Notes: generated from the sequence alone by a model not told the origin. A stretch of 64,000 nt of DNA from Candidatus Kuenenia stuttgartensis (GCA_943332855.1 CALQRA010000001.1:3276-67275), one strand, 5' to 3'; positions 33,604-50,109 are shown, numbered from the stretch's first letter. A program made the numbers and translations.

Positions 33604-33878
33604 TGGAGACCATGCCCCCGGCGACCGACCCGACAAACGACACCGCCGCCGAGGCGGAGGCCGTCCAGCTGGAATGCATTCGGCGGATGTCGCCGCTGGA
33701 GCGCCTCCGGGCAGCCTGTCGGTTGTCAGACCGCGGCCGCCGCCTTGCCTTCGACGCGATCCGTGCCCGGCATCCGGAAGCTGACGAGACGGAAGTCCGC
33801 CTTCGTTTCATCGAGCTCGCCTACGGTGCTGATCTCGCCGCCGACGTGCGGCGCTGGCTGCGGGATCGGGGGCGATGA
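33604..33878 (+). CDS. small helical protein, putative antitoxin-like partner of the downstream nucleotidyltransferase
   Basis: ORF 33555..33878 trimmed to ATG 33604 because the upstream codons lie in the palindrome. Its stop overlaps the next ATG (ATGA at 33875). It shares E-x2-RRM(S/T)-x2-ER(L/I) with the small ORF at 54235. Confidence 0.5.
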
Positions 33879-34459: not shown

Positions 34460-34477
34460 TCCCTCATGTGAGGATCG

Positions 34478-34501
34478 AAGGTGCCAGTTACCAAATCTGG
34501 G
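34478..34501. repeat. 24-nt direct-repeat copy (22/24) of 33509-33532
   Basis: AAGGTGCCAGTTACCAAATCTGGG here versus AAGGTGCCAGCCACCAAATCTGGG at 33509-33532. Together they bracket the two-gene NTase module. Confidence 0.8.
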
Positions 34502-34757
34502 CCAAGGATTCAAACGGCCATGCGATCCCCTCCGGGATCCACCTCCGGCCGTTCCAGGAGGGGAGCTGGTATCACCACTTCTGCTTCCACGCCCACCGCT
34601 GGGTGAAGTGAGCGGAGGGAATGGATGACTGGCACGGGATCTGCGTAGCGTTTCTGCATCGGTCAGGGGGAAAGGGGATCGTGGCCCGGGGTGTGCGGAC
34701 GATTCCGCACGTGCGTCTGGCTTGATCCCGCGCTGCTGACCAAACCTGGAGACGCTC

Positions 34758-37424
34758 ATGGACATCGCTGAGAGCTTCGGCCGACTGTTCGATTCTGCAC
34801 CGGTGGGTGGTGCAAAACGCCCCGCGCGACTCGGGCGCCGGCGGCGGGCGGTCTGTCGGGGGGAAGCTTGGCAGGGGGGCGAGCGGCTCGAAGCGCGGGC
34901 GATGTTCGCCGCCGCGCCGATGCAGGTGGGGATGAATGTCGAGAATGTCGTCGACTGGTCGCCCGCCTGGACCTTCACCGACGCCTTTCAAAGCTCGCGG
35001 CCGTGGATCGCTCAGGCGGTCGATGTGGCGAGTAACGCGGGCCGCTGGGATGTCGGTGACACCCATCCGCTCCCGGTGAATGCCAAGGGGGAGATCACCC
35101 GCTTCGAGACCTGGACGGAAAACGGCCGGCAGTTCCGCCACCAGGCTGCCACGCTCCTCTTTCGCGACGTCGGCAGCTACGCCAGCGGCACCTACCACGC
35201 CCAGTGGGAGGGGAAGGGCACGGTGAGCTTCGGCTTCGACGCCCGCGTCCTCTCGACAACCAACGGCCCCGATGGGATCCACCGCGCGGAGCTCGCTGTC
35301 ACGCCGACGAGCGCCGGAATCCTCGTCCGCATCGAGTCAACCGATCCGGCCGATCCGGTCCGTGGGATCCATGTGTGGATGCCCGATTGGAAGGGGAAGA
35401 GCTTTGCAGGAGAGGTGTGGAAGCCAGGGGCGCCGTTCTCGCCGTTTCATCCGCTCTTCCTCGAGCGCCTCGATCCCTTCTCGACGATCCGTTTCATGGC
35501 CTGGCAGGAGACCAATAGCTCTGACGTCCGCACCGTTGCCGACGCCCGCCCCGCCGATGCTGCCCGTCAGAGCTCCGGCCCTGGCGGCTCGGCGAGCGAG
35601 CCGAAGGTCAACGGCGTCTCGATCGAGCAGATGGTGCAATTGGCCAACGACCTCGACGCCGATCCGTGGTTCAACATGCCGCCGCGGGCCGACGATGCGT
35701 ATGTTCGCGCTTTCGCCCAGACCGTCCGCGACCGGCTCGAGCCGGGGCGGAAGGTGTATGTCGAATGGTCAAATGAGATCTGGAACTACGGCTGGGGGTT
35801 TGACGGGGCGCGGGTCGTCGACGAAGTCGCCGGGCGTCCCGAATACTCGGGCCTCGACCACTGGCAGATCGCCGGCCGTGAGGCGAAGCGCGATCTCGAC
35901 ATCTGGAGCAGCGTCTTCGCCGGGCAGACGTCGCGGCTGGTCCGCGTCGCCGCCGGCCAGGCGGCCAACGAATGGATCGTCAACCGGGTCGCGTCGGCGA
36001 TGGGGGGCTCGTTCGACGTCCTCGCCATCGCCCCCTACATCCTCCCCACCGACGAGCAGCGCGCGGCCTACACCGCCGCGACGACCGTCGACACGATCCT
36101 CGCCGACTGCCGCACCGCCGTCGACACGGCGATCGACTGGACGCGACGCCACAAGGTCCTTGCCGACACCTGGTCGGCGACGCTCGGCCGCCCCGTCGGG
36201 CTGGTGGCCTACGAGGGGGGCATCCATCTCGACAGCCGTGGCAGCCCGGCCCAGCAGGCCTTCTACGATGCCACGAACGACCGGCGGATGGGAGACATCT
36301 ACCGGCAGTATCTCGCGGGCCTGGCTGCCGCGGGGATGAGCCTCTACGTCGATTTCCAATTCACCGGCCAGTCTGGCGCTTCCCCCTGGGGGGATTTCGC
36401 CAAGCTCCACGCGATGGATGAGCCGGTGGCTTTCGCGTGGCGCTATGCTGCGGTCGTGGCGGCGGCCGATAACGCGCTCGTTCGGGCGGCGCCGCGCCCC
36501 CCAATCGACTTCAACGGCGACGGCGTCGGCGATGTCGTGTGGCGCGATGCGAAGACCGGGGCCTGCGTCGCCTGGCTCCTCGATGCCGGCGGGGCGACGA
36601 AGGGAACGCGCGCCCTCGGCGGCGGCGGGGGGGTGAACACGCTCGCCACGATCGGTGACTTCGACGGCGACGGCGTTTCCGATCTCGTCTGGCGCAACAA
36701 GACGAGCGGCGTGAGCATCCTCAAGCTCCTCCGGGCCGATGGCACGGCGAAGGGGACGGCTTCCCTCGGCGGGAGCGCGGCCTGGCAGATCGAGACGTCG
36801 GACGATTTCGATGGCGACGGTCGCGACGATCTCGTCTGGCGCCACGGCCGCAGCGGTTCGACCGTGATCTGGCTCATGAACGGCGGCCGCGCCGTGGCCA
36901 GCGCAGCGATCGGCGGTGACTCCGTCTGGCGGCTCGTTTCGACCTCGGGGCGGTATGACGCCGACGGCGACGGCCGGGCCGATCTCCTCTGGCGGAATGC
37001 CTCGAGCGGCGTCACGGTCCTGTGGCTCATGAACGGCCTCACGAAGCGCTCCGCGACGGCGCTCGGCGGCGATGCCCGCTTTGAGGTGGTGGCCAGCGGC
37101 GACTTCAATCGCGACGGCCGAGGGGATCTGGTGTGGCGCGACCGGATCAGCGGGACGGCGGCGGTCTGGCTCATGAACGGAGCGACGGCGCTGTCGAGCC
37201 GGGCCCTTCTGCCGGCGGGCCTGTCGTCTCCCACGACGTCTTGGTCGATCGTCGCCACGCTCTCAGCCGGAAGCAACGGCCGCCCGGGGATCGTCGTCCG
37301 CGAGACGACCAGCGGCCGGACCATGGTGTGGTGGATGGACGGGGTGGCGATCGACGCCGCGGCGCCCCTCGGCGGCGATGGACGGGTTGCGCTCCTCCGC
37401 CGCCCCGGCCGGCTCATCGGCTGA
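34758..37424 (+). CDS. clan GH-A-like TIM-barrel glycoside hydrolase-like domain fused to >=5 FG-GAP/VCBS repeats
   Basis: VYVEWSNEIWNY and LVAYEGGIH resemble the two catalytic-Glu strands of GH-A enzymes. The C-terminal repeats read DFDGDGVSDLVWRN..., DFDGDGRDDLVWRH..., DADGDGRADLLWRN..., DFNRDGRGDLVWRD.... The N-terminus is Arg-rich followed by ERLEARAMFAA. Confidence 0.6.
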   Translation: MDIAESFGRLFDSAPVGGAKRPARLGRRRRAVCRGEAWQGGERLEARAMFAAAPMQVGMNVENVVDWSPAWTFTDAFQSSRPWIAQAVDVASNAGRWDVGDTHPLPVNAKGEITRFETWTENGRQFRHQAATLLFRDVGSYASGTYHAQWEGKGTVSFGFDARVLSTTNGPDGIHRAELAVTPTSAGILVRIESTDPADPVRGIHVWMPDWKGKSFAGEVWKPGAPFSPFHPLFLERLDPFSTIRFMAWQETNSSDVRTVADARPADAARQSSGPGGSASEPKVNGVSIEQMVQLANDLDADPWFNMPPRADDAYVRAFAQTVRDRLEPGRKVYVEWSNEIWNYGWGFDGARVVDEVAGRPEYSGLDHWQIAGREAKRDLDIWSSVFAGQTSRLVRVAAGQAANEWIVNRVASAMGGSFDVLAIAPYILPTDEQRAAYTAATTVDTILADCRTAVDTAIDWTRRHKVLADTWSATLGRPVGLVAYEGGIHLDSRGSPAQQAFYDATNDRRMGDIYRQYLAGLAAAGMSLYVDFQFTGQSGASPWGDFAKLHAMDEPVAFAWRYAAVVAAADNALVRAAPRPPIDFNGDGVGDVVWRDAKTGACVAWLLDAGGATKGTRALGGGGGVNTLATIGDFDGDGVSDLVWRNKTSGVSILKLLRADGTAKGTASLGGSAAWQIETSDDFDGDGRDDLVWRHGRSGSTVIWLMNGGRAVASAAIGGDSVWRLVSTSGRYDADGDGRADLLWRNASSGVTVLWLMNGLTKRSATALGGDARFEVVASGDFNRDGRGDLVWRDRISGTAAVWLMNGATALSSRALLPAGLSSPTTSWSIVATLSAGSNGRPGIVVRETTSGRTMVWWMDGVAIDAAAPLGGDGRVALLRRPGRLIG

Positions 37425-37477
37425 CACGTTTCCACCCTGTGGCAGTAAGCTCTTGTCGAGCGGCGCGGGGGAGGGGA

Positions 37478-38824
37478 ATGTCTGCCGGGGAGAGAACCAT
37501 GCGTGAAGCAAGGCGAATGATGTTGAAGTCGGGGGCCGCGGCAGTAGCGTTGCCGCTGGTGACGGCGGTCGCGCGGGGGGCCGAGCCCGTCGCGCCGCTC
37601 CCGGTGGCCGTCATCGGCCCCGGCGGGATGGGGCGATCGCATCTCGAGCATCTCGCTCGGCGGGACGACGTCCGCGTGGCGTGGGTGTGTGATGTCGATG
37701 CCGACAGGCTCGCGGCCGCCAAGTCGCTCGTTGTCGAGGCCGGGCACGATGAGCCGCAGGGGAGCGCGGATCTCCGCGACGTGCTTGCCGACAAGGACGT
37801 GAAGGCTGTCTGGATCGCCACCCCCGACCATTGGCACGGACCCGCCGCGATCCTCGCCGCCGACGCCGGGAAGCATGTCTATGTCGAGAAGCCCGCCTGC
37901 CACAACTTCCGTGAGGGGCGGCTGATGGTCGAGGCGGCCCGGCGCAACCGCATCGCCATGCAGGTTGGGACGCAAGCCCGCAGTGCCCCGATGATCCGCC
38001 GGGCGATCGACAAGCTCCGCGCCGGAGCGATCGGTGAGGTGATCGTCGCCAAGGCCTGGAACAGCCAGCGCCGCGGATCGATCGGCAAGGAGAAGCCTTC
38101 GGATCCGCCCGCGAGCCTCGCCTACGATCAGTGGGTCGGTCCGGCCGCCTGGCAGCCCTATCAGAAGAACCTCCTTCCGGGAGTGTGGCGGTTCTGGCGC
38201 AACTTCGGCTGCGGCGACATCGGCAACGACGGCGTTCATGAGATCGACATCGCGCGCTTTGGCCTCGGCGTCGACGAGCATCCCGATCGGGTGGCGGGGC
38301 TGGGCGGAAAGTACTTCTTTGACGACGATCAGGAGTTCCCCGACACGCAAGTTTGCGTCTGGGAATGGCCCGGGGCAGGGGGCTCGACCAAGCGCCGGCA
38401 ACTCGTCTTCGAGCAGCGCGATTGGTCGCCGTATGTTCAGGAGGGGCATGAGAATGGCAATGCCTTCTATGGCACGAAGGGGATGCTCACCTTGGGCAAG
38501 CGAACCGGCTGGCAGCTCTATTCAGAGCGCAACAAGCTCATCGACGAAGAAGTTGGCAGCGTCGATCTCATCGCCCACCACGACGATTTTCTCGATTCCG
38601 TGCGGACAGCGATCGCCGGCGGGGAGCCGCGCCGGACCCACGCCGACATCGAGGAGGGGCATCGCTCGGCGGCGCTTGTGCACCTGGGCAACATCGCTTG
38701 CCGGCTGGCGCGGACGCTTCATTTCGACGCCGCCGCCGAGCGGATCATCGGCGACGACGAGGCCCAGGCTCTCCTCACGCGGGCGTATCGGGCCGGGCAT
38801 TGGGCCGTGCCGCGGGGCGTGTGA
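37478..38824 (+). CDS. Gfo/Idh/MocA family oxidoreductase with Tat-like leader
   Basis: ORF trimmed to ATG 37478, which is preceded by GGAGGGG. Leader ...ARRMMLKSGAAAVALPL, Rossmann motif VAVIGPGGMGRSHL, and VYVEKP typical of the family. Confidence 0.85.
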   Translation: MSAGERTMREARRMMLKSGAAAVALPLVTAVARGAEPVAPLPVAVIGPGGMGRSHLEHLARRDDVRVAWVCDVDADRLAAAKSLVVEAGHDEPQGSADLRDVLADKDVKAVWIATPDHWHGPAAILAADAGKHVYVEKPACHNFREGRLMVEAARRNRIAMQVGTQARSAPMIRRAIDKLRAGAIGEVIVAKAWNSQRRGSIGKEKPSDPPASLAYDQWVGPAAWQPYQKNLLPGVWRFWRNFGCGDIGNDGVHEIDIARFGLGVDEHPDRVAGLGGKYFFDDDQEFPDTQVCVWEWPGAGGSTKRRQLVFEQRDWSPYVQEGHENGNAFYGTKGMLTLGKRTGWQLYSERNKLIDEEVGSVDLIAHHDDFLDSVRTAIAGGEPRRTHADIEEGHRSAALVHLGNIACRLARTLHFDAAAERIIGDDEAQALLTRAYRAGHWAVPRGV

Positions 38825-39480
38825 CGATTTCGTCGCGGCTGGTATCGCGGGAGCCTTGCAGTCCGCCCGCCCTCCGGTGCCACCATGACGAAGATCGTTG
38901 TTCTCGACGGCCACACAGCCAACCCCGGCGACGTCTCCTGGGAGCCGCTGGAGCGCCTCGGTGAAATCACCGTCCACGATCGGACGAAGCCGGGCGATGT
39001 CGTCGCCTGCGCTGCCGATGCGGATGTCGTGCTCACGAACAAGACGGTGCTCACGGCCGAGGCGATCGCGGCGCTGCCGCGGCTCAAGCTGATCTGTGTC
39101 CTCGCCACCGGCTACAACGTCGTCGATGTTGCCGCCGCGAAGGCACGCGGGATCCCGGTTTGCAATGTCCCGGAGTACAGCACGCCGAACGTCGCCCAGG
39201 CTGTCTTCGCGATGCTGCTCGGCCCGCGCGGGGGGCGCTGGTCAACGAGGCCGATCTGGCGGCGGCGCTCCACGCCGGGCGGATCGCCGGGGCAGGCCTC
39301 GACGTCCTTTCGGTCGTGCCGCCGTCGCCGTCGAATCCCTTGCTCACGGCGCCGCGCTGCGTGATCACCCCCCACATCGCCTGGGCGACGCGCGACGCCC
39401 GCCGCCGGCTCTTCGAGACGACGGCCGGCAACGTCGCGGCGTTTCTGGCCTGCTCGCCCCGGCATGTCGTCAACGGCTGA
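38726..39480. repeat. segmental duplication, copy A (oxidoreductase 3' end + intergenic + deleted dehydrogenase gene)
   Basis: Collinear with 47535..48641. I counted 17 mismatches in the first ~330 nt of the dehydrogenase CDS (~95% identity). Copy A is a net 352 nt shorter. Confidence 0.9.
38885..39480 (+). pseudogene. D-2-hydroxyacid dehydrogenase pseudogene (internal 352-nt deletion with frameshift)
   Basis: ORFs 38885..39364 and 39160..39480 are in different frames. Together they match the N- and C-terminal parts of the intact 315-aa paralogue at 47694..48641. The central NAD-binding region is missing; the junction is near 39221. Confidence 0.85.
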
Positions 39481-39772
39481 CGGGGCGTTGACGGCATTTG
39501 CGATGTTGGAACGAAAGTTCTCGGCGTTTCCGGTTTATCTTCCCCATGGCGCCTGAGACGATGTGGGATTGCGGTGCGGGATTCTGCCGGAGCTTCTGCC
39601 GGATGATTTTCTGGGTCGGCTTTTGCCCAGCGGCTTGACATCGATCTATCGCCGCATGAAACTCCCCGCCAAAAAGCGACGAAACGACTCCTCCGAGGGG
39701 CTGCGTGGCGGTTTCTATCGGTCGGGATTCTCCGGCCCGTTCGTGGTGGCTTTTCCAAAGTGAGACGGACTC

Positions 39773-42376
39773 ATGCTCAATCGTCGGGATGTGCTCAAGG
39801 CAGGTGTCGGGTCGCTGGGGCTGACGGGTGCGGCCGCGGCCGAGGATGGCACCGGGCCCTTCGACCAGCCGACGGCGAAGTTCGACGTCAAGAAGACAAC
39901 GCTGGTTCCGAATTGGGCCTTTCGGAAGTTGCTCCCCATCCCGCCGGTCCCGCGGCCGACAGCCGTCGGCACCTACGAGGAGTTGACCCGACAGGGAGCG
40001 ATGCCGTTCGGGGCGACCGATCCGGTTCCGATTGGCGGCTGTTTCCATGGCGTTGCTCGGGAATGGGGGGAGACACCCGAGCATTGGCGGGCCTACGGGC
40101 TTGACCCTGTGCTCAGCGGCGTCGACTCGTGGAACGACAAGAAACGCTGCTTCGGCAAGTTCTACAGCCACGAGAATCCCGCGGATCGTTCGAAGGACAT
40201 CGCGAATTGGGGCCACTTCCCCATCAAGTGCTACAAGGTGCCGATGGTCGAGTTGGAGAAGTGCCTCGCGAATCATGACCTGCCCGCACGTCTCTACGGC
40301 TACGCGGGCATCGTTCCTGGGCCGATGCATGCCTTCCGGCTCGGTCAGCCGGTTGTCATCCGCTACGAGAATCATCTCGAGACGGAGGTCTCGATCCACC
40401 TCCACGGCGGACATTCGCCTTCCCACAGCGACGGTTTCCCGACGTTTTACGTCCTTCAGGGGAAAGCTCGAGACTACTTCTACCCCAATATTATTCCCCT
40501 CAAAAAAGTGACTTCCGAGCCTCGCGGGACGTCCGCGCCCGTGACCGATGCGGCCGCTCAGGAGTTTCTCAAACAGGAACAGCAGTGGTTTCGCGAAATC
40601 GCGCAGGAGGCGACTCGCCAGGGGCATGCTGTGACTCACCAAGTCGATATGGGGGAGGCCCAGTCGTCGGTCTGGTATCACGATCATGCCACGGATGCCA
40701 CCGGCTACAACGTCGCGAAGGGGCTGGCTGGGGTGGCTCGATACTTCGGTGAGCGGGAATTGCGACTCATCCACGACGGTGTTCTCCCCGGTCTGCGGGA
40801 GAAATCGTGCTTCGATCCTGATCTCCATCAGTTGGTGGAGCGCGAAGAGGTCGAAGACCCCGACAATCCCGGCTACTACAAGCCTGGCAAGGAGCCGTAT
40901 CACAACCCATACGACATCTACATGGTCCTCCAAGACCGTGTCATCGATCCGGCGACCGGGCAGGTGTCCTACAATTCCGACGCCCACAACGGCTATCTCG
41001 GCGACATCGTGTTGGTCAACGGCGAGGCGTATCCCTTTCTGAATGTCGAGAATCGAAAGTACCGCTTCCGGTTCCTCGATGGCTCGAACTCCAGGATTTA
41101 TCGACTTCGGCTCCTCTCAGAAGAAAACTACCTCCGGGCGCAGCGTTTCGGTGTTGGCACGGCGGCGGCAGGCGTGGTTGGAGATGGCGAATCCGCCGCT
41201 TCAGTTCTTTCCGACTACGACCTGATCTCCGAGCCGTTCCTGCGGATCGGAAAGGATTCCTGGCTGTGGTCGAAGCCGCTACCACGGAGGAGCGTGACGA
41301 TCGCCATGGCTAACCGGGCTGATCTGATCGTTGACTTCCCCGCCCTGGCGTCTGATCTCGGTGCCGGGGAGGAGCGGGTCTTCTATGTCGTCAACACGAT
41401 GCCTCAGACCGATGGCCGCGGTCCGAAGCAACCTCTGGCGGACGGCGGTGATCCTCGGGTGTTGCCATTGCCCTTCGACACTGTCGCCAGCCCCGATGGT
41501 GCGATCCCGGCCACCAGCGTTGCCGAGCTCCCCCGACCGATGCCGCTGATGAAAATCATCGTTCGTGGCCGGCCTGTGCCGAAGGAGCAGGATGCGAGCA
41601 TCAACGTCGACACCTGCCTCAATCCTCATGATGCGATCCTCGATGACGAGGTCCAGGTGGTTCGGGAGTTTGTGTTTCAGCGGGGGCGTGGAGCCTGGAT
41701 GATCAATTCCAGGTTCTATGATCCGACGATTTCCAACGTGAATCCGACCCTCGGCACCGTCGAAGAGTGGGTCTTGAAGAACGGCGGTGGTGGCTGGTGG
41801 CACCCCATCCACATCCACCTCGAGAGTCATCAGTTGGTGCGATACGAGAAGAGCTTCGACGCCGATGCGATTGTCGATGCTGCAGATCCGCCCGCGCAAC
41901 TGCCGGTGGGAGGGTTCGTCGATGTGACGGGGGAGATTCCGGGAGAGGAGGTGCGCGGGCTCCACGACACGCAGATTCTCGGGCCGAACACGGTTGCCAG
42001 GATCCGAATGCGTTTCCGCACCTGGAATGGTCCTTTCGTGTTCCACTGCCACAACGTGGAGCATGAGGACATGCGGATGATGTTCAATTTCGAGCCGGTG
42101 CCGCGGCGCGAGATTCTCAATCGAGCCACCGAAGAGCTGGAGCGCTCGCGAGGCGAGGATCGCCGTGACGCCAATGGCTACCCCGATGCCCGCACGCACG
42201 GCGACGACGTCACCCTGCAGCCCAGCGGGACCGATTCTGACGAGCCACGCAAGATCGGGGAGCTTCCCTGGGAGATGCATCCAGTGCCAAGGACGCCGGC
42301 GGCGGAGGCGCCCGGGCCGTTCATTCCCAAGCGTTCCGCTGGCGACACCGACGTGAAAGAGGGGGCCAAGCAGTGA
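39773..42376 (+). CDS. Tat-exported multicopper oxidase (bilirubin oxidase/CotA-like) with insertions and a ~110-aa C-terminal extension
   Basis: Leader MLNRRDVLKAGVGSLGLTGAAAA. All four copper-ligand motifs are present: IHLHGGH, WYHDH, HPIHIHLESH, HCHNVEHEDMRMM. At 867 aa it is larger than the usual ~500-600. Confidence 0.85.
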   Translation: MLNRRDVLKAGVGSLGLTGAAAAEDGTGPFDQPTAKFDVKKTTLVPNWAFRKLLPIPPVPRPTAVGTYEELTRQGAMPFGATDPVPIGGCFHGVAREWGETPEHWRAYGLDPVLSGVDSWNDKKRCFGKFYSHENPADRSKDIANWGHFPIKCYKVPMVELEKCLANHDLPARLYGYAGIVPGPMHAFRLGQPVVIRYENHLETEVSIHLHGGHSPSHSDGFPTFYVLQGKARDYFYPNIIPLKKVTSEPRGTSAPVTDAAAQEFLKQEQQWFREIAQEATRQGHAVTHQVDMGEAQSSVWYHDHATDATGYNVAKGLAGVARYFGERELRLIHDGVLPGLREKSCFDPDLHQLVEREEVEDPDNPGYYKPGKEPYHNPYDIYMVLQDRVIDPATGQVSYNSDAHNGYLGDIVLVNGEAYPFLNVENRKYRFRFLDGSNSRIYRLRLLSEENYLRAQRFGVGTAAAGVVGDGESAASVLSDYDLISEPFLRIGKDSWLWSKPLPRRSVTIAMANRADLIVDFPALASDLGAGEERVFYVVNTMPQTDGRGPKQPLADGGDPRVLPLPFDTVASPDGAIPATSVAELPRPMPLMKIIVRGRPVPKEQDASINVDTCLNPHDAILDDEVQVVREFVFQRGRGAWMINSRFYDPTISNVNPTLGTVEEWVLKNGGGGWWHPIHIHLESHQLVRYEKSFDADAIVDAADPPAQLPVGGFVDVTGEIPGEEVRGLHDTQILGPNTVARIRMRFRTWNGPFVFHCHNVEHEDMRMMFNFEPVPRREILNRATEELERSRGEDRRDANGYPDARTHGDDVTLQPSGTDSDEPRKIGELPWEMHPVPRTPAAEAPGPFIPKRSAGDTDVKEGAKQ

Positions 42377-42957
42377 CCGAGTCGACATTCGCCCGAAAGG
42401 GCAGCCGCTTATTGATCTCGGATCGTTTTGCCAACGTTCCGCTGATCAATCATTTTGGTCAGGCCGTCCGATTCCGGGACGATCTGGTCAACGGTCGGGC
42501 GATGATCATCAACACGATGTACACCAACTGCGACGGCACCTGTCCCGGAACGTCGGCGCGCCTGCAGCAATTGCGAGACGATCTTTCCCCGCTCTTCGGC
42601 CGGAAACTGGTGATCGTTTCGATCTCGATCGACCCCGCCGAGGATTCGCCGCGTGTTCTCCGGGAGTATGCCGCGGGCTTCGACGCTGACATGCCCCGGG
42701 CCGACCGTTGCGAGTGGCATTTCCTCACCGGTGCGGTGGCGGCAATCGAGGAGCTGCGTCGGAGTCTCGGCTTCTACGATCTCGATCCAAAGGTCGATGC
42801 CGATCGCACCCGCCACGCGGCGATGCTTCAGTTCGGCAATCCGAACGCGGATCGCTGGGCAGCGCTGCCGTCGGCGTTGCGAAAGCCATTGCTTCTGGAG
42901 GCAATTCGTCGGGTATGCGGCTTCACGTTCGAACAGCGGTACGGGATCCCCGGCTGA
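42373..42957 (+). CDS. SCO1/SenC-like thioredoxin-fold copper chaperone homologue, no recognisable signal peptide or anchor
   Basis: MYTNCDGTCPGTSARL (CxxxC), IVSISIDPAEDSPRVLREYA, WHFLTG, and a downstream His (RTRHAAM). Its GTG start overlaps the oxidase stop (GTGA). Confidence 0.7.
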   Translation: MTESTFARKGSRLLISDRFANVPLINHFGQAVRFRDDLVNGRAMIINTMYTNCDGTCPGTSARLQQLRDDLSPLFGRKLVIVSISIDPAEDSPRVLREYAAGFDADMPRADRCEWHFLTGAVAAIEELRRSLGFYDLDPKVDADRTRHAAMLQFGNPNADRWAALPSALRKPLLLEAIRRVCGFTFEQRYGIPG

Positions 42958-42981
42958 TTCGCCGGCAGGCATTTTTCATTT

Positions 42982-45900
42982 GTGAGGGGCAAGTCGATGC
43001 GTGCATCCCGTGGTTGGGCTGTGTGGAGTCGGTGCTGGCGGCGCCGCGTGGCGATTGTCCTCGTGGCTGTCATGGGGAAGGGGCTCATGATGCCGCCCGG
43101 TGGTGTGGCCGCACCGCCGCAGCGGGATCCACCGGCAGCTTTTCACCTAGTCGGCGAGGAGGACTTACAACTCCTTGACCGGGTCCAGCAGGTGATCGAC
43201 GACTGGAATTCCAGGCGGCTGGTCGATCCCTACGTCCGTCATGTGGAGTCGGTGGATCAAGACGGCAAGCCGACGGTGCAACGGCTAGGAGCCAGGGAGG
43301 ATCTCAACGAGTTCATCGCCGATTACGCGGCCGCCGAGGCCCTCGGAAAAGCCTTTTTCTGGGAGATGCAGGCCGGGAGCGACTTCCGACGTGAACAGGG
43401 AAAGTTTATTGGAACGGCCTGCGCCTCGTGTCACTACCGCCACGGGGCCGATGCGCGCGACACCCACACCACCCGGATCCCATTGGTCGCCTGGGACAAT
43501 TATCCGCTCGACGGCGGACATCCGCTGACGTTCGGCGAGTCTCAGCTGCCCTATGATCCTCTTGTTTCGGCGACGACAACGATCACGTCGCTTGACCAGC
43601 TCTACGATACCCGGTCTGAGCAACGTCGCCAGCTTCCCGTTCCCCGCCCAGGCCTACCGGGTGATGGGGAGGCCTTCGACGCGAATGAGGAAGACGAAGC
43701 CCCGAGGACTCCCTTGTCGCTGATCGTCGGATCACAGGGCGTCGAGCGCCGGACGTATCAAGAACTCAAGGTGCTCCCTGACGGATCGTCTACCGAGGAT
43801 TGGTACTCCGAAGCGTCGAGTCCCATCTCTCCCGATCCTGCGGAAGCCCCGCGAATGCCAGACGAATGGGAGATGTTCTCTAAGGAAACAAGATCGTTCC
43901 GGCAGATCACGCCCCGTAATTCGCCGTCGGTATTCAATGCAACCTTCTCCGACCGGCTCTTCCATGACGGGCGGGCGTCCTCGACGTTTAATGGCTTCAG
44001 TATCTTCGGCGACTCAGATAGCCGGAAAGTAATTCACATCCGGCGTGAGCGGCGCGGCAGAGGTGGATCGGTGGAGGTGACGCTCGAACCGGTGCGGATT
44101 GCCTTGACTAACGCGGCGCTCGCCTCGCAGGCGCTCGGTCCGATCGTCAATGAAGTGGAGATGTCCTACCAGGGCAGAACCTTCCACGATCTGGGGCGGA
44201 AGCTTCTCGACGCCACCCCCCTTGGCTATCAGAGCGTGAATGCCGCCGACAGTCACATGGGCTGGTTGATCGCCGAAGCCGAGCAACGCGAGCCAGGCAC
44301 AGCGGTGGTGGGGCTCGGGACGAAGTACCGCAAGCTCATTCAGCGTGCCTTCCGGCGCGAGTGGTGGGATGGGGCTGTCACGACAGGAAGGGACGGGCAG
44401 ATTCCTGTACCACTGCGTCTTGCACGGCCTCAATCGGGTGCCAACGAAGAGGCGTGCCCCACTGGCCCCCTCATGGAGGCGAACTTCTCGCTCTACTGGG
44501 GGTTGAGCATCATGCTCTACGAGGCGAGCCTTGTTTCCAACGACTCGCCCTTTGACCGGATGATGTCCGGCGACCCGAGTGCTGTCGAGGACCGCTGGAC
44601 GGCGCTCAAAATGAAGCCCTCGGTGTTGATCGATCGGGTGGAGACGAAGTATCCCCCTCCGCAGGGCACTCCCCCCTTCGAGTTCTCCGGTGGTGCCGAG
44701 GTGTTTCAGCGAGGATTCCGCGTGTTTCTCAGCCGCGGCTGTCATGACTGCCATGCCGGGCCGCTGTTCAGTGAGACCTATTCCCGTGAGCGCAATTCGA
44801 GCCCCGGTCAACCGATCGCCCATGCCATCGAGCAGACGCTCCTGCCGACGTCGCGTGGCGACGCGATCGCCCTGGCGCTGCGACCAGGCAAACAGACGCT
44901 TCTCGCCGCGGTCGCCGAGCAACTCCTCGACAGATGCGGTGGTGATCGACAGAGGGCTGTAACGCTCGCCGGGCAGCTCGATCTGCTCCGGGAGGAGGCA
45001 GGGGGCCACACGTCGCGTATGGAATCGCTGGTGAAGGATCGGCTCTTGGATGTGATCGGGCCGGCGGATCCCGATGTCAAGCCGAATGATGGAGCGATCG
45101 CCAAGCTTTTCATGGACTACGAGCGCAACCTGGCCAAGGGCGCCGGGAATCGGACTTTCTTCACCGAAGATGAGCGGGTGGCGTATGCCCACTCCCTCGG
45201 GCTTCCGCTCCTCGTCGAGAAGACCCCGCTTCCCCCTGGAATTGCGGAGATGAGGGCCCGACTGCCTCTGTCGGGGCCGCCTGCTTCGGCCCCATACGCT
45301 TTCTACGATTCGGGCTTCTACAACCTCGGGGTCGCACCGCCTCGATACGACCGCGGAATTGGTGACTTCGCCCATCAGCTCGACGAGCTTGAAGATGGCT
45401 CAGTCGAGCTCGGCAACCGATTGCAGGGAAAAGCAGCGAATTCCAGACAGGGGCATCACCATGTCGCAGGCGGTTCGGCCTACTCCCTCCCGTCTCCTGC
45501 ACGCCTTTCAAAAAGAGGGGTCACGAAGCGCCCTTCCGACGACGAGGGTTCCCGTCCTGACACCTCTTGGTACCGGAATGTGCCAATGTGGCCCGGGGAC
45601 GACCCTGCTGCCGCGGCGATGACGACTCAGCGGCGATCCGAAGTTCATCTCTACTCGCGGGCGCGTCAGCTTGTCCTCACGGAAGTACCGTGGGGACACC
45701 GCAAGCCGTTGCTCCATGACAACGAGTTATTGTTCTGGGGCAGCTTCAAGACACCGTCCCTGCGAAATGTCGAATTGACCGGGCCGTATATGCACAACGG
45801 ACGGCTCCTCACGATTATGGATGTGCTCGACTTCTATGATCGGGGAGGCGATATCCCCTTCGACGGCGTTACGAACCCCGACAAGCACCCGGCGATGCGG

Positions 45901-46131
45901 TCGCTGTCGATGTCGATCGACGACAAATATGCTGTTGCCTTCTTCCTTGCCTGCCTTACCGACGATCGTGTCCGGTATGAGCAAGGGCCCTTCGATCATC
46001 CGTCGCTGCGGATTGCGAATGGCTACGCAGCTGATCCGGGTGGCACGCCCATCAGCCAGGCCTTTGATCTGCCGGCGGTGGGTATCGAAGGGTCACCCGA
46101 CAGTCGGCCATCGTTTCCTTCCTCGAAGTGA
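42982..46131 (+). CDS. expanded di-haem cytochrome c peroxidase / MauG-family protein (1049 aa)
   Basis: Two CxxCH motifs: CASCH at 43420-43434 and CHDCH at 44740-44754. Family blocks PRNSPSVFNATFSDRLFHDGRA, QALGPIVNEVEM, SPFDRMMSGD and FKTPSLRNVELTGPYMHNGRLLTIMDVLDFYDRGG. N-terminal hydrophobic leader. Confidence 0.8.
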   Translation: MRGKSMRASRGWAVWSRCWRRRVAIVLVAVMGKGLMMPPGGVAAPPQRDPPAAFHLVGEEDLQLLDRVQQVIDDWNSRRLVDPYVRHVESVDQDGKPTVQRLGAREDLNEFIADYAAAEALGKAFFWEMQAGSDFRREQGKFIGTACASCHYRHGADARDTHTTRIPLVAWDNYPLDGGHPLTFGESQLPYDPLVSATTTITSLDQLYDTRSEQRRQLPVPRPGLPGDGEAFDANEEDEAPRTPLSLIVGSQGVERRTYQELKVLPDGSSTEDWYSEASSPISPDPAEAPRMPDEWEMFSKETRSFRQITPRNSPSVFNATFSDRLFHDGRASSTFNGFSIFGDSDSRKVIHIRRERRGRGGSVEVTLEPVRIALTNAALASQALGPIVNEVEMSYQGRTFHDLGRKLLDATPLGYQSVNAADSHMGWLIAEAEQREPGTAVVGLGTKYRKLIQRAFRREWWDGAVTTGRDGQIPVPLRLARPQSGANEEACPTGPLMEANFSLYWGLSIMLYEASLVSNDSPFDRMMSGDPSAVEDRWTALKMKPSVLIDRVETKYPPPQGTPPFEFSGGAEVFQRGFRVFLSRGCHDCHAGPLFSETYSRERNSSPGQPIAHAIEQTLLPTSRGDAIALALRPGKQTLLAAVAEQLLDRCGGDRQRAVTLAGQLDLLREEAGGHTSRMESLVKDRLLDVIGPADPDVKPNDGAIAKLFMDYERNLAKGAGNRTFFTEDERVAYAHSLGLPLLVEKTPLPPGIAEMRARLPLSGPPASAPYAFYDSGFYNLGVAPPRYDRGIGDFAHQLDELEDGSVELGNRLQGKAANSRQGHHHVAGGSAYSLPSPARLSKRGVTKRPSDDEGSRPDTSWYRNVPMWPGDDPAAAAMTTQRRSEVHLYSRARQLVLTEVPWGHRKPLLHDNELLFWGSFKTPSLRNVELTGPYMHNGRLLTIMDVLDFYDRGGDIPFDGVTNPDKHPAMRSLSMSIDDKYAVAFFLACLTDDRVRYEQGPFDHPSLRIANGYAADPGGTPISQAFDLPAVGIEGSPDSRPSFPSSK

Positions 46132-46227
46132 GAAGTCGGTACGCCACGCCAGTGATTCAGGTCAGTCCACAACTCCCGGGAAGTCGTTCCCACGGGCCAA
46201 CACTTTCTGTCATCGGGAAAAGTCATC

Positions 46228-47313
46228 ATGCCACGCTTCGCGGTCGTCCTTGAGGGAGAGATTGAGTCGATTCAGGCCGGAGTGTTCAACGGTCGGAATT
46301 GTGTGCTCCTCGCGATGCTGAATCAGGAAGTGATCATCTACGACACCGCCATCCTGAATGGGCGGATCGTAAAGCCCGAAACCTGGGCTGCCCTCTCCAT
46401 TTCCCAGATCACGTCGCCTGACCCGCTTCCCGGGAACGCCGCCGCGATCCGCGGGTTCGTCGGTTGCACCGCGATCGTGTCGGGCAATTACGACAGCGAC
46501 ACAAAGCGAATCGAAGTTGATCACTTCGTCAATCCCGTCGGCAGCGCAGGCGATGTCGGAGAGCCATTTCCCAAGGTGATCCTCGGTCCCCCGGAGACAG
46601 TGATCGGCGGGGCGATTACCCCCCCTCCGGCAACAGATCAACTGATCAATGTCAATGATCTCCCGGTCACGGTCATCCAGCAGACTGAGGATCTTCGGCT
46701 GCCGCAACTGCCGCCGCGGAACGAGTTTGGGTTTCTCGTCAAGCTTCCCGCCGTGGGCACGAGCGTCGGGCCACAGCGAAACGACCCATCGGGTCGACCT
46801 CTTCCCCCGCCCATCGCGGTCGTCAATGGCTACTTCGGGAAGGACGACTCCGGCAAGCCAACCGTCGCGTACGGGTATGACGTTGTCGTCGACAGTCCCG
46901 ACCGGAGCATCCTGGTCGATCCGGGACATCAGATTTCGGTGACGAAAGCCCAGGCCCGCGATCGGAAGAATATTTCTTACGATATCAATCTTCAGGGCGG
47001 AATCACCCTCGAGGTCGGTGACCCGGCAACTCCGAGAAGGGTGGGCGTGACGCAGCGTGTTGCCGTCTACCGCAACGACGGCAACGATGGCCAATTGCAT
47101 CGCATCGGTCCGATCATCGATGTTCCCGATGTCCGCGGGAAGCCGTTTGCCCGCTGGCGACTCGCGACAACGATTCCCTATGGTGCGACGCCGTTCAATC
47201 AGCCACCGCAGCAGATCATCGTCCGGAACGAGACGCCCGCGGTGAAACTCGAGGTTGGCGGGCCCGTTGAGGCTGCCATGGGTGAGCGATTGGTCGAGAT
47301 CATCAAAGGCTGA
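46228..47313 (+). CDS. hypothetical protein (361 aa), last gene of the oxidase cluster
   Basis: Protein-like, beta-rich composition, co-directional with the cluster and 96 nt after the peroxidase gene. No signal peptide, no Cys/His clusters, no family recognised. Confidence 0.5.
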   Translation: MPRFAVVLEGEIESIQAGVFNGRNCVLLAMLNQEVIIYDTAILNGRIVKPETWAALSISQITSPDPLPGNAAAIRGFVGCTAIVSGNYDSDTKRIEVDHFVNPVGSAGDVGEPFPKVILGPPETVIGGAITPPPATDQLINVNDLPVTVIQQTEDLRLPQLPPRNEFGFLVKLPAVGTSVGPQRNDPSGRPLPPPIAVVNGYFGKDDSGKPTVAYGYDVVVDSPDRSILVDPGHQISVTKAQARDRKNISYDINLQGGITLEVGDPATPRRVGVTQRVAVYRNDGNDGQLHRIGPIIDVPDVRGKPFARWRLATTIPYGATPFNQPPQQIIVRNETPAVKLEVGGPVEAAMGERLVEIIKG

Positions 47314-47534
47314 GGAAACTCGGCGTCGCGCTCGGTGGAGGAATGACTGGCTTGGAGTTTCTGCAAGAGGCGATAGCGGTCCGGGTTGGGTCTGACCGGG
47401 GCAGACAACCGCGTGTGCGATTGAGTCGAGGCCTTGGCCCAGACGGCATCCGCAGTCAACCGGCGACCTGCACGGAAACCTGACAGGTGATCGCCGACTT
47501 GAGTCTGCCGTCCCAGACGCTGATTGCGAAGGCC

Positions 47535-47634
47535 GACGCCGCCGCCGAGCGGATCATCGGTGACGACGAGGCCCAATCGCTCCTCACGCGCGCCTACCGG
47601 GCCGGGCACTGGGCCGTACCGCGGGGCGTGTGAC
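47535..47634 (+). pseudogene. 3'-terminal fragment of a Gfo/Idh/MocA oxidoreductase gene
   Basis: Encodes ...DAAAERIIGDDEAQSLLTRAYRAGHWAVPRGV*, matching the last ~33 codons of 37478..38824. No upstream gene body. Confidence 0.75.
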
Positions 47635-47693
47635 GATTTCGTCGCGGCTGGTATCGTGGGGGCCTTCCATTCCGCCCGCCCTCCGGTGCCACC

Positions 47694-48641
47694 ATGACGA
47701 AGATCGTTGTCCTCGACGGCCATACCGCCAACCCCGGCGACCTCTCCTGGGAGCCGCTTGAGCGCCTCGGGGAACTGACCGTCCACGATCGGACGAAGCC
47801 GGGCGAGATCGTCGCCCGCGCTGCCGATGCGGATGTCGTTCTCACGAACAAGACGGTGCTCACGGCCGAGGCGATCGCAACGCTGCCGCGGCTCAAGCTG
47901 ATCTGTGTCCTCGCCACCGGCTACAACGTCGTCGATGTTGCCGCCGCGAAGGCGCGCGGGATCCCGGTTTGCAACGTCCCCGAGTACAGCACGCCGAACG
48001 TCGCCCAGGCTGTCTTCGCGCTCCTTCTCGAGCTCACCAACCGCACCGGCCATCACGACCGATCCGTCCACGACGGGCGCTGGGCCGCTGGCCCCGACTT
48101 CTGCTACTGGGACGGCGACCTCGTCGAGCTATCCGGGCTGACGTTCGGGATCGTCGGGCATGGGCGGATCGGCCGGGCGGTGGGGCATGTCGCCCGTGCC
48201 TTCGAAATGAAGGTCCTCTACCACCGTCGCAACCCCGACGGCGACGCGTGCTGCGTCGATCTCGAAACGCTTTTTGCACAGAGCGACGTCGTCAGCCTCC
48301 ACTGCCCGCTCACTCCCGAGACCAACGCGTTTGTCAACGCCCGGCGGATCGAGCAGATGAAGCCGACGGCGTTTCTTCTCAACACCGCGCGGGGGGCGCT
48401 GGTCAACGAGGCCGATCTGGCGGCAGCGCTCCACGCCGGGCGGATCGCCGGGGCGGGCCTCGACGTCCTCTCGGTCGAGCCGCCGTCGCCGTTGAATCCC
48501 TTGCTCACGGCGCCGCGCTGCGTGATCACGCCCCACATCGCCTGGGCAACGCGCGACGCCCGCCGCCGGCTCCTCGAGACAACGGCCGGCAACGTCGCGG
48601 CGTTTCTGGCCAGCTCGCCCCGGCATGTCGTCAACGGCTGA
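47694..48641 (+). CDS. D-isomer-specific 2-hydroxyacid dehydrogenase (glycerate dehydrogenase/hydroxypyruvate reductase-like)
   Basis: 315 aa. GIVGHGRIGRAV (NAD-binding), LLNTARGALVNEADL, GAGLDVLSVEPP and ITPHIAWAT are typical family blocks. Confidence 0.85.
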   Translation: MTKIVVLDGHTANPGDLSWEPLERLGELTVHDRTKPGEIVARAADADVVLTNKTVLTAEAIATLPRLKLICVLATGYNVVDVAAAKARGIPVCNVPEYSTPNVAQAVFALLLELTNRTGHHDRSVHDGRWAAGPDFCYWDGDLVELSGLTFGIVGHGRIGRAVGHVARAFEMKVLYHRRNPDGDACCVDLETLFAQSDVVSLHCPLTPETNAFVNARRIEQMKPTAFLLNTARGALVNEADLAAALHAGRIAGAGLDVLSVEPPSPLNPLLTAPRCVITPHIAWATRDARRRLLETTAGNVAAFLASSPRHVVNG

Positions 48642-48790
48642 CTGGACGTTAAGGCCGGAGTGAATGTTTCTTTTGCCCTGTCCGATTGCCAATCCCCTTC
48701 AGTACGCCGTTGGTCGCGACTGGAAATTGAAGAGCCTATTTGTTTCGAAGCAGTCCCGAAGTCATTGGCCCGTTCCGGAGAACCTTTCCC

Positions 48791-50008
48791 ATGCCGATCA
48801 TCGCACGGATTCCCATTACGAATTTCTACGCCAACGGTGACTACACGGCCCAGATCGCCGTCGGGAGTGAACGGACGATCGTCAATGTGATTCTCGACAC
48901 CGGGAGCAGCACGCTCGCGGTCAAGTCGTCGAAGTACAACCCCTCGAAGGATCGTGCCCTTCGGTCCACGTCCTACGCTCAGGACGTAAGGTATGGAACA
49001 GGCGGTTGGGCCGGGCCTCTCGTAACGACACGGGTGTCGCTGGGCGTGGGCGACAAGGCTGTCTCGCTTGAAGAAGCCTATCTTGCGATCACGGATGCGT
49101 CGCTGCCGGATAACTTTGGGAACGCTGATGGCATCCTCGGGATCGCCTACAAAGGGCTCAATCAGGCGTACAACCTGGCTACGTATTTTCAGCAGCAGGA
49201 AGTGCAGCCGCCGGTGAGCTATCCATGGCCGTTTTCCGTGGCTAATTCCTCGACGGGGTTGAATCAGTTGATGTCGCTTTTTCAGACCCTTCAGTTCGAG
49301 GACATTCCCCCTTATATTGAACAGCTGAAGCAGCACGGTGGGATCGCAAACAAGTTTGCTTTTTATACCCTCCGTTCAACCCCGAGCGTCGCCTCCGAAA
49401 ACCCGGAGACGGCTCCGATCAACCAAGGCATCTTCGTGCTCGGTGGGGGGGAAGAGCAGGCCGATCTCTACACCGGTCCGTTTCTCAATGTCGCTGTGCT
49501 CGACGACTTGTACTACAATGTCAATCTGAAAGCCGTTCAAGTCGGTTCGTCGGCGATCAAGGCCGTCGCTCCGCTCCCGGTTCGGCTCAAGCAGACTGCG
49601 ATCACCAATGCGATCGTGGATAGCGGCACGAATTCGCTCGCCTTGGCTCCCGACGTGTGGAAATCGGTGCTTGCCGGCTTCGCAGCCATTGATCCTGGCT
49701 TTGTGACGTTGATTCAGCAGGCCGCAGCGACCGGCATTGGGAATGCCTCGATCGAGCTGGCGAAATGGCCCGACGTCGAGTTTCTTCTTGCTGGAGCGCA
49801 TGGCGAAGACGTGCGTCTTCGGGTTGCGCCCCAGACCTACTGGCAGTTGGATGCGATCGCTCCCGGCCAGGCCCTGTTCGCGATGGAGAACGGCAACATG
49901 CCGCAGTCGATCCTCGGCCTTCCGTTGATGAACAACTACTACACCGTCTTCGACCGCTCCCAAGACGCGTACGGGATCATTCGATTTGCGGCAATAAAAG
50001 CCCTTTGA
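48791..50008 (+). CDS. pepsin-like (MEROPS A1) aspartic peptidase homologue, no signal peptide or propeptide evident
   Basis: Both catalytic motifs are present, ILDTGSSTLAV (D at 48896) and IVDSGTNSLALAP, plus the flap-like YGTGGWAG. ORF trimmed to ATG 48791 (MPIIARIPITNFY...). GC is visibly lower. Confidence 0.75.
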   Translation: MPIIARIPITNFYANGDYTAQIAVGSERTIVNVILDTGSSTLAVKSSKYNPSKDRALRSTSYAQDVRYGTGGWAGPLVTTRVSLGVGDKAVSLEEAYLAITDASLPDNFGNADGILGIAYKGLNQAYNLATYFQQQEVQPPVSYPWPFSVANSSTGLNQLMSLFQTLQFEDIPPYIEQLKQHGGIANKFAFYTLRSTPSVASENPETAPINQGIFVLGGGEEQADLYTGPFLNVAVLDDLYYNVNLKAVQVGSSAIKAVAPLPVRLKQTAITNAIVDSGTNSLALAPDVWKSVLAGFAAIDPGFVTLIQQAAATGIGNASIELAKWPDVEFLLAGAHGEDVRLRVAPQTYWQLDAIAPGQALFAMENGNMPQSILGLPLMNNYYTVFDRSQDAYGIIRFAAIKAL

Positions 50009-50109
50009 TGCGTCGTCATCGTCGGGCGACGGAGGCCGGAAGGAGACCCCCGCCGTGATGGTTGAGGCGGGCGAGGGACGATGACCACGAGTGGACGGTC
50101 CGCGCGCGG

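Follow-up and report, generated by a model that had tools for sequence, protein, structure and literature searches.

A copper-oxidase cassette between diverged copies of a host dehydrogenase segment at a variable junction in freshwater Planctomycetota

The closest described counterparts of the locus analyzed here are Campbell-type integration, for which insertion-duplication with non-replicating plasmids and additive integration of circular DNA serve as the comparison systems, flexible genomic islets or hotspots, segmental duplication followed by pseudogenisation, and homology-facilitated illegitimate recombination (HFIR). The last process combines one homologous anchor with an illegitimate join of 3-10 bp and has been proposed to restore inactivated genes (PMC6382021, on HFIR in naturally transformable bacteria, citing de Vries & Wackernagel 2002, Prudhomme et al. 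2002 and Meier & Wackernagel 2003). Our locus lies in a stretch of 64,000 nt deposited as Candidatus Kuenenia stuttgartensis (GCA_943332855.1 CALQRA010000001.1:3276-67275); this whole stretch is called the window, and coordinates count from its first letter. In the window, a block of apparently acquired DNA carrying a four-gene copper-oxidase cassette (block X) separates two directly repeated copies (A and B) of a host segment that includes a 2-hydroxyacid dehydrogenase gene, and a second cargo, a pepsin-like aspartic protease gene with its flanks (block Y), follows just outside the repeat pair. We are confident that X is acquired cargo at an insertion hotspot, linked to a 1.1-kb duplication of which one copy was pseudogenised. 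The locus represents a new instance of a known rearrangement process and implies no new element type or mechanism.

The repeat pair and the block between its copies

The features on which the argument rests are the following.

37499-38824, plus strand: GFO/IDH/MocA-family oxidoreductase, intact, 441 aa (Pfam GFO_IDH_MocA and C-terminal domains; the 441-aa product also occurs in independent assemblies)
38725-39489, plus strand: repeat copy A (repeat search, alignment, ungapped comparison), consisting of the oxidoreductase tail (38725-38824), a 60-nt spacer (38825-38884), the dehydrogenase remnant (38885-39480) and 9 nt past the stop
38885-39364, plus strand: open reading frame (ORF) of the copy A pseudogene, 159 aa (translation; Pfam 2-Hacid_dh only, residues 16-107)
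39221-39225, plus strand: junction of a 352-nt deletion in copy A, with a cluster of substitutions around it (best junction 39221-39224)
39490-47533, plus strand: block X, 8044 nt, acquired to judge from its composition, with a 283-nt 5' non-coding flank, four co-oriented genes and a 220-nt 3' non-coding flank
39773-42376, plus strand: multicopper oxidase, 867 aa (Pfam Cu-oxidase_2/_3)
42373-42957, plus strand: SCO1/SenC-family copper chaperone, 194 aa (Pfam PF02630)
42982-46131, plus strand: protein of ~1045 aa with segments resembling di-haem cytochrome c peroxidase, MauG and MbnH (Pfam CCP_MauG)
46228-47313, plus strand: fourth cassette gene, 361 aa (no Pfam, NCBIfam or PDB match)
47534-48650, plus strand: repeat copy B (repeat search, alignment, Pfam), consisting of an orphan 100-nt oxidoreductase tail, the spacer, the intact dehydrogenase gene (47694-48641, 315 aa) and 9 nt past the stop
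48032-48383, plus strand: segment of copy B without a counterpart in A, 352 nt, encoding the NAD-binding core (alignment; Pfam 2-Hacid_dh_C at residues 108-283 of the copy B product)

The initial annotation had proposed a direct duplication in which each copy comprises the tail of the oxidoreductase gene, a 60-nt spacer and the dehydrogenase gene. Alignment and Pfam bear this out, with boundaries slightly revised (from 38726-39480 and 47535-48641) and an overall identity of 93.5%, slightly lower than the ~95% first given; a 1.1-kb match at this level is far beyond chance. The repeat search recovers two collinear pairs of direct segments, 38725-39024 with 47534-47833 and 39224-39489 with 48385-48650, and the start-to-start offset changes from 8809 (A positions 38725 to ~39222) to 9161 (~39225 to 39489). 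Without gaps, the copies mismatch at 33 of 496 nt in the first part and 12 of 264 nt in the second. The left edge of the repeat is abrupt and falls at 38725/47534, within the coding sequence of the oxidoreductase, the last 100 nt of which form the start of copy A; the right edge lies 9 nt past the stop codon of the dehydrogenase. The oxidoreductase itself is 93% identical at the amino acid level to its counterpart in a related genome (L002).

The deletion and frameshift reported for copy A, along with the loss of the NAD-binding core, are corroborated by Pfam and translation, as is the integrity of the copy B gene. The remaining copy A ORF comprises 112 native codons from the start of the catalytic domain of a D-2-hydroxyacid dehydrogenase followed by an out-of-frame tail, the 352 nt that were lost not being a multiple of 3. 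With its frame broken and an essential domain missing, the copy A dehydrogenase is a pseudogene. By contrast, the copy B dehydrogenase is full length compared with all relatives and has the NAD-binding domain. Slippage was considered as the source of the deletion and rejected: the CTTCTC repeats in copy B are spaced by 351 nt, not 352, and no match of at least 3 nt occurs at a spacing of 352 around the deletion, so it is not a clean product of slippage or microhomology.

Block X, which the annotation had delimited as 8054 nt (39481-47534), measures 8044 nt after revision. Its third product shows local matches, below cut-off, to the MbnH-family and MauG models of NCBIfam and local sequence matches in PDB to 6e1c, cytochrome c peroxidases and MauG. 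The four genes form a conserved unit that is found in distant Planctomycetota, including Singulisphaera acidiphila, in unrelated neighbourhoods. Across the window, L088, L089, L090, L191 and L193, the pattern is an oxidase of ~850 aa, SCO1, a MauG/MbnH-like protein of 1000-1100 aa and a protein of 320-360 aa with no family or PDB match. The fourth gene closes the cassette in distant Planctomycetota as well: its homologues, 32-39% identical, follow the peroxidase-like gene in L089, L090, L191 and L193. Outside the species, the nearest homologues of the multicopper oxidase are 69-71% identical at the amino acid level, and all come from Planctomycetota; the genes flanking the block have relatives at 92-93%. 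A literature search found no description of the four-gene cassette, which may be a copper-dependent periplasmic system for oxidation or cofactor maturation. We flag it as a conserved, uncharacterised copper-oxidase cassette that moves among Planctomycetota. In one strain (L186), the peroxidase-like gene contains ~166 extra nt and a C-to-A change (~44431-44434) and is called as two ORFs of 487 and 577 aa; the cassette may be inactivated in some members of the population. The non-coding flanks of X have no homologue in any of the fetched loci, and scans for promoters and terminators yielded nothing exceeding the shuffled background.

In composition, X stands apart from the genome around it. Its GC content per kb is 60-64%, compared with 64-72% upstream, and GC content at third codon positions (GC3) is 0.71-0.75 in the four cassette genes, compared with 0.79-0.91 in 16 upstream genes (Mann-Whitney p = 2e-4); the dehydrogenase copies have values of 0.83 and 0.87, and the neighbours taken together span 0.79-0.92. 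An intrinsically low GC content of the cassette is ruled out by a control: in four other genomes (L088, L089, L090 and L191), cassette GC3 equals that of the neighbouring genes. Given that low GC3 is confined to this genome, the cassette appears to have been acquired from a donor with lower GC and not inherited vertically as an allele of the L191 type, and we conclude from composition that X is acquired DNA. The annotation was accordingly right that the block has lower GC and is foreign, although the foreign composition is confined to this genome, and it overstated the gap, which is smaller than its sampled lines implied (47% and 63% versus ~80%).

The arrangement is reproducible. Proteins identical to the dehydrogenase, the oxidoreductase and the fourth cassette product occur on 9, 18 and 24-plus contigs, respectively, drawn from NCBI metagenome-assembled genomes (MAGs) and ENA metagenomes of several projects. 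Every contig that is long enough has the same gene order, which amounts to more than 20 contigs from different samples and assemblers, and no variant lacking X was found among the contigs of this species. If a low-complexity repeat near 51.1 kb, which is variable, is set aside, 13.5 kb of these contigs show 1-2 single-nucleotide polymorphisms (SNPs) relative to the window. With over 20 independently assembled contigs agreeing, the arrangement is not an assembly artefact, the error that the annotation had named as a possible undoing of its reading.

The same junction in related genomes

Relatives were found with the dehydrogenase as query in species-representative genomes and JGI metagenomes; they are freshwater Planctomycetota (Pirellulales/Planctomycetaceae MAGs). 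Two further features define the right side of the site.

48651-50105, plus strand: block Y, the pepsin-like aspartic protease gene (48791-50008) with its flanks, outside the repeat pair (Pfam Asp)
50110-54183, minus strand: convergent gene of 1357 aa, the right border of the hotspot (no Pfam match)

Block X is absent from the close relatives L001-L003 and L091-L097, each of which has one copy of the repeat segment. The oxidoreductase-dehydrogenase adjacency without the block that the annotation had predicted is present, in a single copy, in every close relative. Nine of these (including L001-L003, L092-L094, L096 and L097; dehydrogenases 82-93% identical at the amino acid level) carry an empty allele, with neither cassette nor protease, in which the stop of the convergent 1357-aa gene lies ~10-70 nt from that of the dehydrogenase. 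In L091 and L095, oxidoreductase, dehydrogenase, protease and the large convergent gene are contiguous, with no cassette and no duplication. The third state is represented by L191, where the C-terminus of the dehydrogenase is followed by a 178-nt spacer, the four-gene cassette, a 28-nt spacer and the convergent gene. This more distant relative (oxidase 69% identical at the amino acid level) has the cassette at the same site with neither duplication nor protease. The annotation had held that a relative with the block at this site and no duplication would count against its model; L191, distant as it is, presents that state, and it follows that duplication is not inherent to the entry of cargo here.

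The site has received other cargo as well. Among 36 loci with the convergent pair, the dehydrogenase and the 1357-aa gene are separated by at most 120 nt in 14 cases, by 160-520 nt in about 13 and by 1.0-1.7 kb in 9. The wider intervals are occupied by a gene for a PEP-CTERM-type or a thioredoxin-like protein, by a reverse-strand gene of lower GC or by short tandem repeats. Altogether, at least five other kinds of cargo occupy the site among relatives, and such variety between the same two genes marks the junction as a recurrent insertion hotspot. Block Y, which is absent from the nine relatives with empty sites and follows the single dehydrogenase in L091 and L095, has an atypical GC3 of 0.71 both in the window and in L091; it is lineage-restricted cargo of the same hotspot and was probably present before the cassette arrived. 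Bacterial pepsin-like proteases are uncommon. On the other side of the dehydrogenase, the oxidoreductase gene is truncated in L001 (9599-9835; the last 237 nt are left) and absent in L093 (6461-6523), independent cases that make loss of most of this gene upstream of the dehydrogenase recurrent in the group.

Recombination at the locus extends beyond the gain of cargo. The protease coding sequence (48791-49930) is 96-100% identical to that of L091 and 93-99% identical to that of L095, compared with 60-94% in the adjoining DNA (estimates of 64-94% and 85-94% for the flanks against L091), which suggests that the gene was exchanged between species very recently. The recent arrival of the whole of Y, to which the near-identity with L091 might point, was rejected: the non-coding flanks of Y are as diverged as the genome, so that only the protease coding sequence has been recently homogenised. 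In the MEHR18-2 population (L185, L189), 14 variable sites in a row (47661-47880) show the copy-A-specific base in copy B, and some of these states occur in no other lineage, which indicates A-to-B gene conversion. Additionally, in MEHR18-2, a patch of 10 differences (48060-48107), inside the region missing from A, separates copy B of two otherwise near-identical strains. Thus, the two copies still undergo gene conversion, and the near-identical protease in diverged flanks and the strain-specific patches in copy B show DNA exchange between this lineage of lake planctomycetes and its sibling species.

In the phylogeny of the dehydrogenase segment, A and B form a clade (bootstrap 0.99) to which L091 is next (bootstrap 0.77 for A, B and L091 together); the L091 dehydrogenase is 93-94% identical to the copies. 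At third codon positions of the dehydrogenase, A and B differ at 20 of 198 sites, and either differs from L091 at 27-29 of 198. A divergence that is ~70% of the distance to L091 implies that the copies either are old or come from two lineages. The identities of A and B to eight relatives shift in blocks along the segment, with the same mosaic pattern in both copies, a further trace of interspecies recombination.

Origins of the composite allele

The junctions constrain any scenario for the origin of the locus. Past the dehydrogenase stop, both copies share CnGGnCGTT, after which A enters X (GACGGC...) and B enters Y as AAGGCCGGAG..., the equivalent in L091 being AACGCCGGAA.... Block X ends in ...GCGAAGGC, and copy B then begins with CGACGCC, so that junction 47533/47534 has a CG overlap within a motif common to the start of Y.

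47529-47535, plus strand: AAGGCCG, spanning the boundary from X into copy B; the 7 nt that follow copy B (48651-48657), with which Y opens, have the same sequence

We tentatively favour, as plausible rather than probable, a single crossover of Campbell topology in which a circularised fragment with dehydrogenase and cassette, derived from a related lineage, entered a protease-bearing chromosome. The short spacer between the dehydrogenase and the 1357-aa gene is a hotspot that tolerates insertions throughout these freshwater Planctomycetota. Under the scenario, the window species descends from an ancestor with the order oxidoreductase - dehydrogenase - Y - large gene, as in L091 and L095, and a related lineage would have carried the cassette directly after its own dehydrogenase, as in L191. 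A donor fragment reaching from inside the oxidoreductase gene (38725) to 220 nt past the last cassette gene would have circularised, creating the illegitimate junction 47533/47534, and one homologous crossover within the 1.1 kb of oxidoreductase tail and dehydrogenase would have produced the order oxidoreductase - A - X - B - Y. The upstream copy, now redundant, would then have lost 352 nt and would be drifting, and the downstream copy, which keeps 160 nt of native upstream sequence, would still be under selection; gene conversion between the two continues. In this account, the passage through a circle, the source lineage of the fragment and the sequence of steps are inferred, and the repeat with its deletion, the empty and single-cargo alleles of relatives, the foreign composition of X, the hotspot, the reproducibility of the arrangement and the conversion tract are observed.

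The topology itself narrows the choice of partners. Given that Y lies beyond the repeat pair that encloses X, one crossover can yield the observed order only from a Y-bearing chromosome and a circle with the repeat segment and X; the reverse combination (an X-bearing recipient and a Y circle) would be expected to put Y before X. The Y state of the nearest relative at this gene (L091), the natural alleles in which the cassette adjoins the dehydrogenase and the abrupt left edge, which lies inside coding sequence and looks like the end of a random fragment, are the reasons for ranking this insertion-duplication first. The divergence of A and B, at ~70% of the distance to L091, would fit copies from two sibling lineages. 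What the initial annotation had said of an integrating circular element is thereby kept in part: the Campbell-like topology is the most economical, and a circular element finds no support in the form of a recombinase (integrase or transposase), a gene for replication, a tRNA, an att site or a plasmid homologue above 28% identity.

The fate of the copies was assessed by polarising their differences with six outgroups, after a first round with three. Changes derived in A number 8 at codon positions 1/2 and 6 at position 3 of the dehydrogenase, and those derived in B number 3 and 6, respectively; in the orphan oxidoreductase tail, B has 0 at positions 1/2 and 3 at position 3. On the A branch, where 8 of 14 changes fall at positions 1/2 (p = 0.57 against 2/3), the pattern would suit neutrality, and the trends would fit a decaying copy A and a selected copy B, in a contrast that is not significant (Fisher p = 0.40). 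The excess of third-position differences in the oxidoreductase tail (8 of 9) was considered as proof that the tail had evolved inside an intact gene elsewhere, and was set aside: after polarisation, only three changes are clearly on the B branch, which leaves that argument weak.

Several observations weigh against the single crossover. The codon-position contrast just given falls short of significance, and gene conversion and interspecies imports blur such contrasts. The sampled genomes include no donor that combines X with an adjacent, closely related dehydrogenase, and the nearest homologue of the cassette is only 69-71% identical at the amino acid level; the cassette of L191 is of different composition and belongs to a distant relative. 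Segment-wise identities to eight relatives reveal no parental switch of the kind a hybrid repeat would show, the parental alleles being unsampled. In PLSDB, no plasmid homologue exceeds 28% identity to the cassette, and neither the block nor the neighbouring genes include a replication, mobilisation or recombinase gene; unlike integrated plasmids, the locus has no vector- or element-like functions, and no circular form is known. To our knowledge, neither natural competence nor another route of DNA uptake is known in these Planctomycetota. Finally, the AAGGCCG repeat, if not due to chance, would be a better fit to a history in which X was first simply inserted into a Y-bearing allele, and is suggestive only.

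That history is the best surviving alternative, itself unlikely. It begins with X entering the Y-bearing allele by simple insertion between ...CGTT and AAGGCC..., 9 nt beyond the stop codon of the dehydrogenase, and continues with an HFIR-like event that brings in an intact dehydrogenase. The imported linear fragment would derive from a related lineage free of X, begin at 38725 in the oxidoreductase gene, cover the dehydrogenase and extend into Y; homology in Y or the large gene would anchor it, and its left end would be joined illegitimately, by CG microhomology, 5 nt inside Y. It would have added an intact dehydrogenase downstream of X, possibly with the already broken copy A as the selective reason. 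Such an origin best explains why AAGGCCG at 47529-47535 equals the 7 nt after the CGTT of copy B, the first unit being read as the filled allele and the second as the empty allele, joined at 2 nt of microhomology. If the motif is real, the joint of the duplication lies 5 nt further, at the CG microhomology; the position of this joint, 5 nt from the end of X, is explained by a heterology boundary here and is a coincidence under the other models. The visible interspecies recombination of recent date (the protease coding sequence, the 48060-48107 patch) and the third-position location of all three unambiguous B-derived changes in the orphan tail also favour the import. Yet this case rests on 5-7 nt: the chance of the match at fixed positions is 2.6e-4 for the 7-mer and 1.8e-3 for 5 independent nt, and rises to ~0.01-0.05 once the inspected offsets are allowed for. 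Moreover, two rare events are needed, the microhomology at the joint is only 2 nt, and the imported flap also matches copy A 8 kb upstream, so that a double-crossover replacement with loss of X should be far commoner. The simple filled allele (dehydrogenase - X - Y) was seen in 0 of the 67 blocks with a cassette in the collection.

Likewise unlikely, and ranked after the import, is a duplication in place within one lineage, in which X, itself devoid of host homology, was captured at a break or stalled fork beside the dehydrogenase and the 1.1-kb target was copied again, with the copies initially identical and the 6.5% divergence arising later. Template switching, unequal sister exchange or long-stagger fill-in could provide the route, or else a tandem duplication came first and X entered at its joint. 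The sister relationship of A and B (bootstrap 0.99) and their shared mosaic of similarity to relatives suit this origin, as does the neutral-like character of the A branch throughout, which is expected of a copy redundant since the split, and no separate donor lineage for the second dehydrogenase has been sampled. However, the event would have to be ~70% as old as the split from L091, an age at odds with the failure to find the structure in any further descendant lineage and with the near-clonality of the sampled population, in which 13.5 kb contain 1-2 SNPs. Duplication followed by independent insertion within a few nt of the joint would be a coincidence at the level of ~1%, and tandem duplication of an X-bearing allele on one molecule would also have doubled X. 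We know of no well-documented bacterial precedent for the capture of 8 kb with a 1.1-kb target duplication.

A more sweeping reading, which we consider improbable, is that the composite allele merges two alternative cargo alleles of the hotspot across species by additive recombination, part homologous and part illegitimate, with restoration of the broken dehydrogenase. If true, uncultured freshwater Planctomycetota, for which no natural route of gene transfer has been described, would often take up DNA from sibling species and recombine with it, and cargo would build up at convergent-gene junctions with no need for a recombinase. A self-mobile element (genomic island, integrative and conjugative element, prophage or transposon) with the repeats as its ends would suit the lower-GC cargo, the direct-repeat flanks and the variability of the site among relatives, and is effectively refuted: Pfam and NCBIfam reveal no integrase, transposase, relaxase or phage gene in the block and its 10-kb surroundings; the 64-kb window has no tRNA or tmRNA; the repeats are 1.1 kb of protein-coding host DNA, with no att site, and do not resemble att cores or target-site duplications; there are no terminal inverted repeats, the sole inverted repeat (32 nt, 75% match) not being terminal; and elsewhere the cassette consists of four ordinary chromosomal genes in unrelated neighbourhoods. 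Least credible of all is a chimeric or mis-joined repeat in a metagenome-assembled genome, to which contigs breaking at the repeat (L173, L177, L179, L180, of the same species) and odd sequence at its edge in L085 (38671-39013) and L189 (from ~48581) could point: such breaks are expected for short reads, contigs spanning the oxidoreductase gene, A, X, B and Y were assembled independently from many samples of at least three projects, and the copies differ at 45 sites and by the 352-nt indel, which lets assemblers tell them apart.

The single crossover and its leading competitors agree on three points: X was acquired at the hotspot, junction 47533/47534 is illegitimate, and the duplication made the upstream dehydrogenase dispensable.

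Other observations and comparison with described systems

Two of the contigs with odd repeat edges deserve separate description. In L085, 36 differences (~10% divergence) span 38671-39013 across the left repeat edge, with the best match, 90.8%, to L002 and the source unsampled. An interspecies import into copy A was rejected, given that L180, which belongs to this MAG too, is normal here and that the tract lies at a contig end; it is probably a strain chimera. In L189, an outgroup-like 3' end of the dehydrogenase from ~48581 leads into an 82%-identical version of the large gene, with no aspartic protease; either Y was lost by natural recombination or the metagenome contig is chimeric. Within the 1357-aa gene, positions 50900-51210 form a repeat with an 18-nt period encoding a low-complexity region rich in Pro, Ser and Gly; the protein is 1318, 1319 or 1357 aa long among strains, and this repeat explains nearly all differences between assemblies.

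Elsewhere in the window, a perfect palindrome with a 21-nt stem (GGTGCCAGCCACCAAA...TTTGGTGGCTGGCACC) lies at 33506-33574 between divergent genes, with a partial copy at 34478-34501. Copies in relatives (L002 396-459, 4322-4393 and 5304-5348; L001 9525-9598) lie exactly at rearrangement breakpoints: in L002, the segment 33503-34461 is relocated between the FG-GAP and oxidoreductase genes, and in L001 a 5-kb deletion (33582-38587) begins at the palindrome. It behaves like a recombination-prone element of the repetitive extragenic palindromic (REP) or miniature inverted-repeat transposable element (MITE) kind. As a factor in the X and Y junctions it was rejected, with no copy near either. A type I restriction-modification module occupies 55913-59864, with HsdM, HsdS (GC3 0.71) and a DUF4357/RAMA protein; after it comes a gene for a TPR protein (60022-61176; GC 53.5%, GC3 0.55), and this is, on composition, another atypical and probably acquired region. 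The five diverged copies of a ~150-nt repeat at 36506-37180 in the FG-GAP protein gene are FG-GAP/VCBS propeller blades, that is, ordinary intragenic repetition.

Among described systems, segmental duplication with pseudogenisation shares with the locus one copy bearing a frameshifting deletion and another that is intact, with trends, short of significance, towards neutral-like substitution in the first and constraint in the second. It differs in that here acquired DNA separates the copies, which are as diverged as sibling species and may not stem from duplication within a genome. The resemblance to HFIR would lie in one illegitimate junction with minimal microhomology (47533/47534, CG), the rest being explained by homology to related alleles, and in the plausible restoration of an inactivated gene. 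The microhomology is, however, shorter than the reported 3-10 bp. Described products of HFIR usually replace or delete recipient DNA beside the anchor, from which the 1.1-kb duplication differs.

Like flexible genomic islets and hotspots, the junction consists of the same two flanking genes enclosing either nothing or different, compositionally atypical cargo depending on the lineage; the usual pattern is one cargo per site, whereas the window species combines two cargo types with a duplicated left flank between them. With Campbell-type integration, the locus shares cargo framed by direct repeats of host sequence, relatives that have the segment once at an empty site, the redundancy of one copy and repeats that still recombine, as the gene conversion demonstrates. 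It departs from that model in that its repeats are 6.5% diverged instead of identical, one repeat edge lies inside a gene and the other in the hotspot, and a second cargo, Y, sits just outside the pair. Compared with these systems, the locus is a well-resolved natural case of the gain of a multi-gene trait with no obvious mobile-element machinery, and the presence of empty, single-cargo and composite alleles in public metagenomes makes for an unusually complete set of intermediates.

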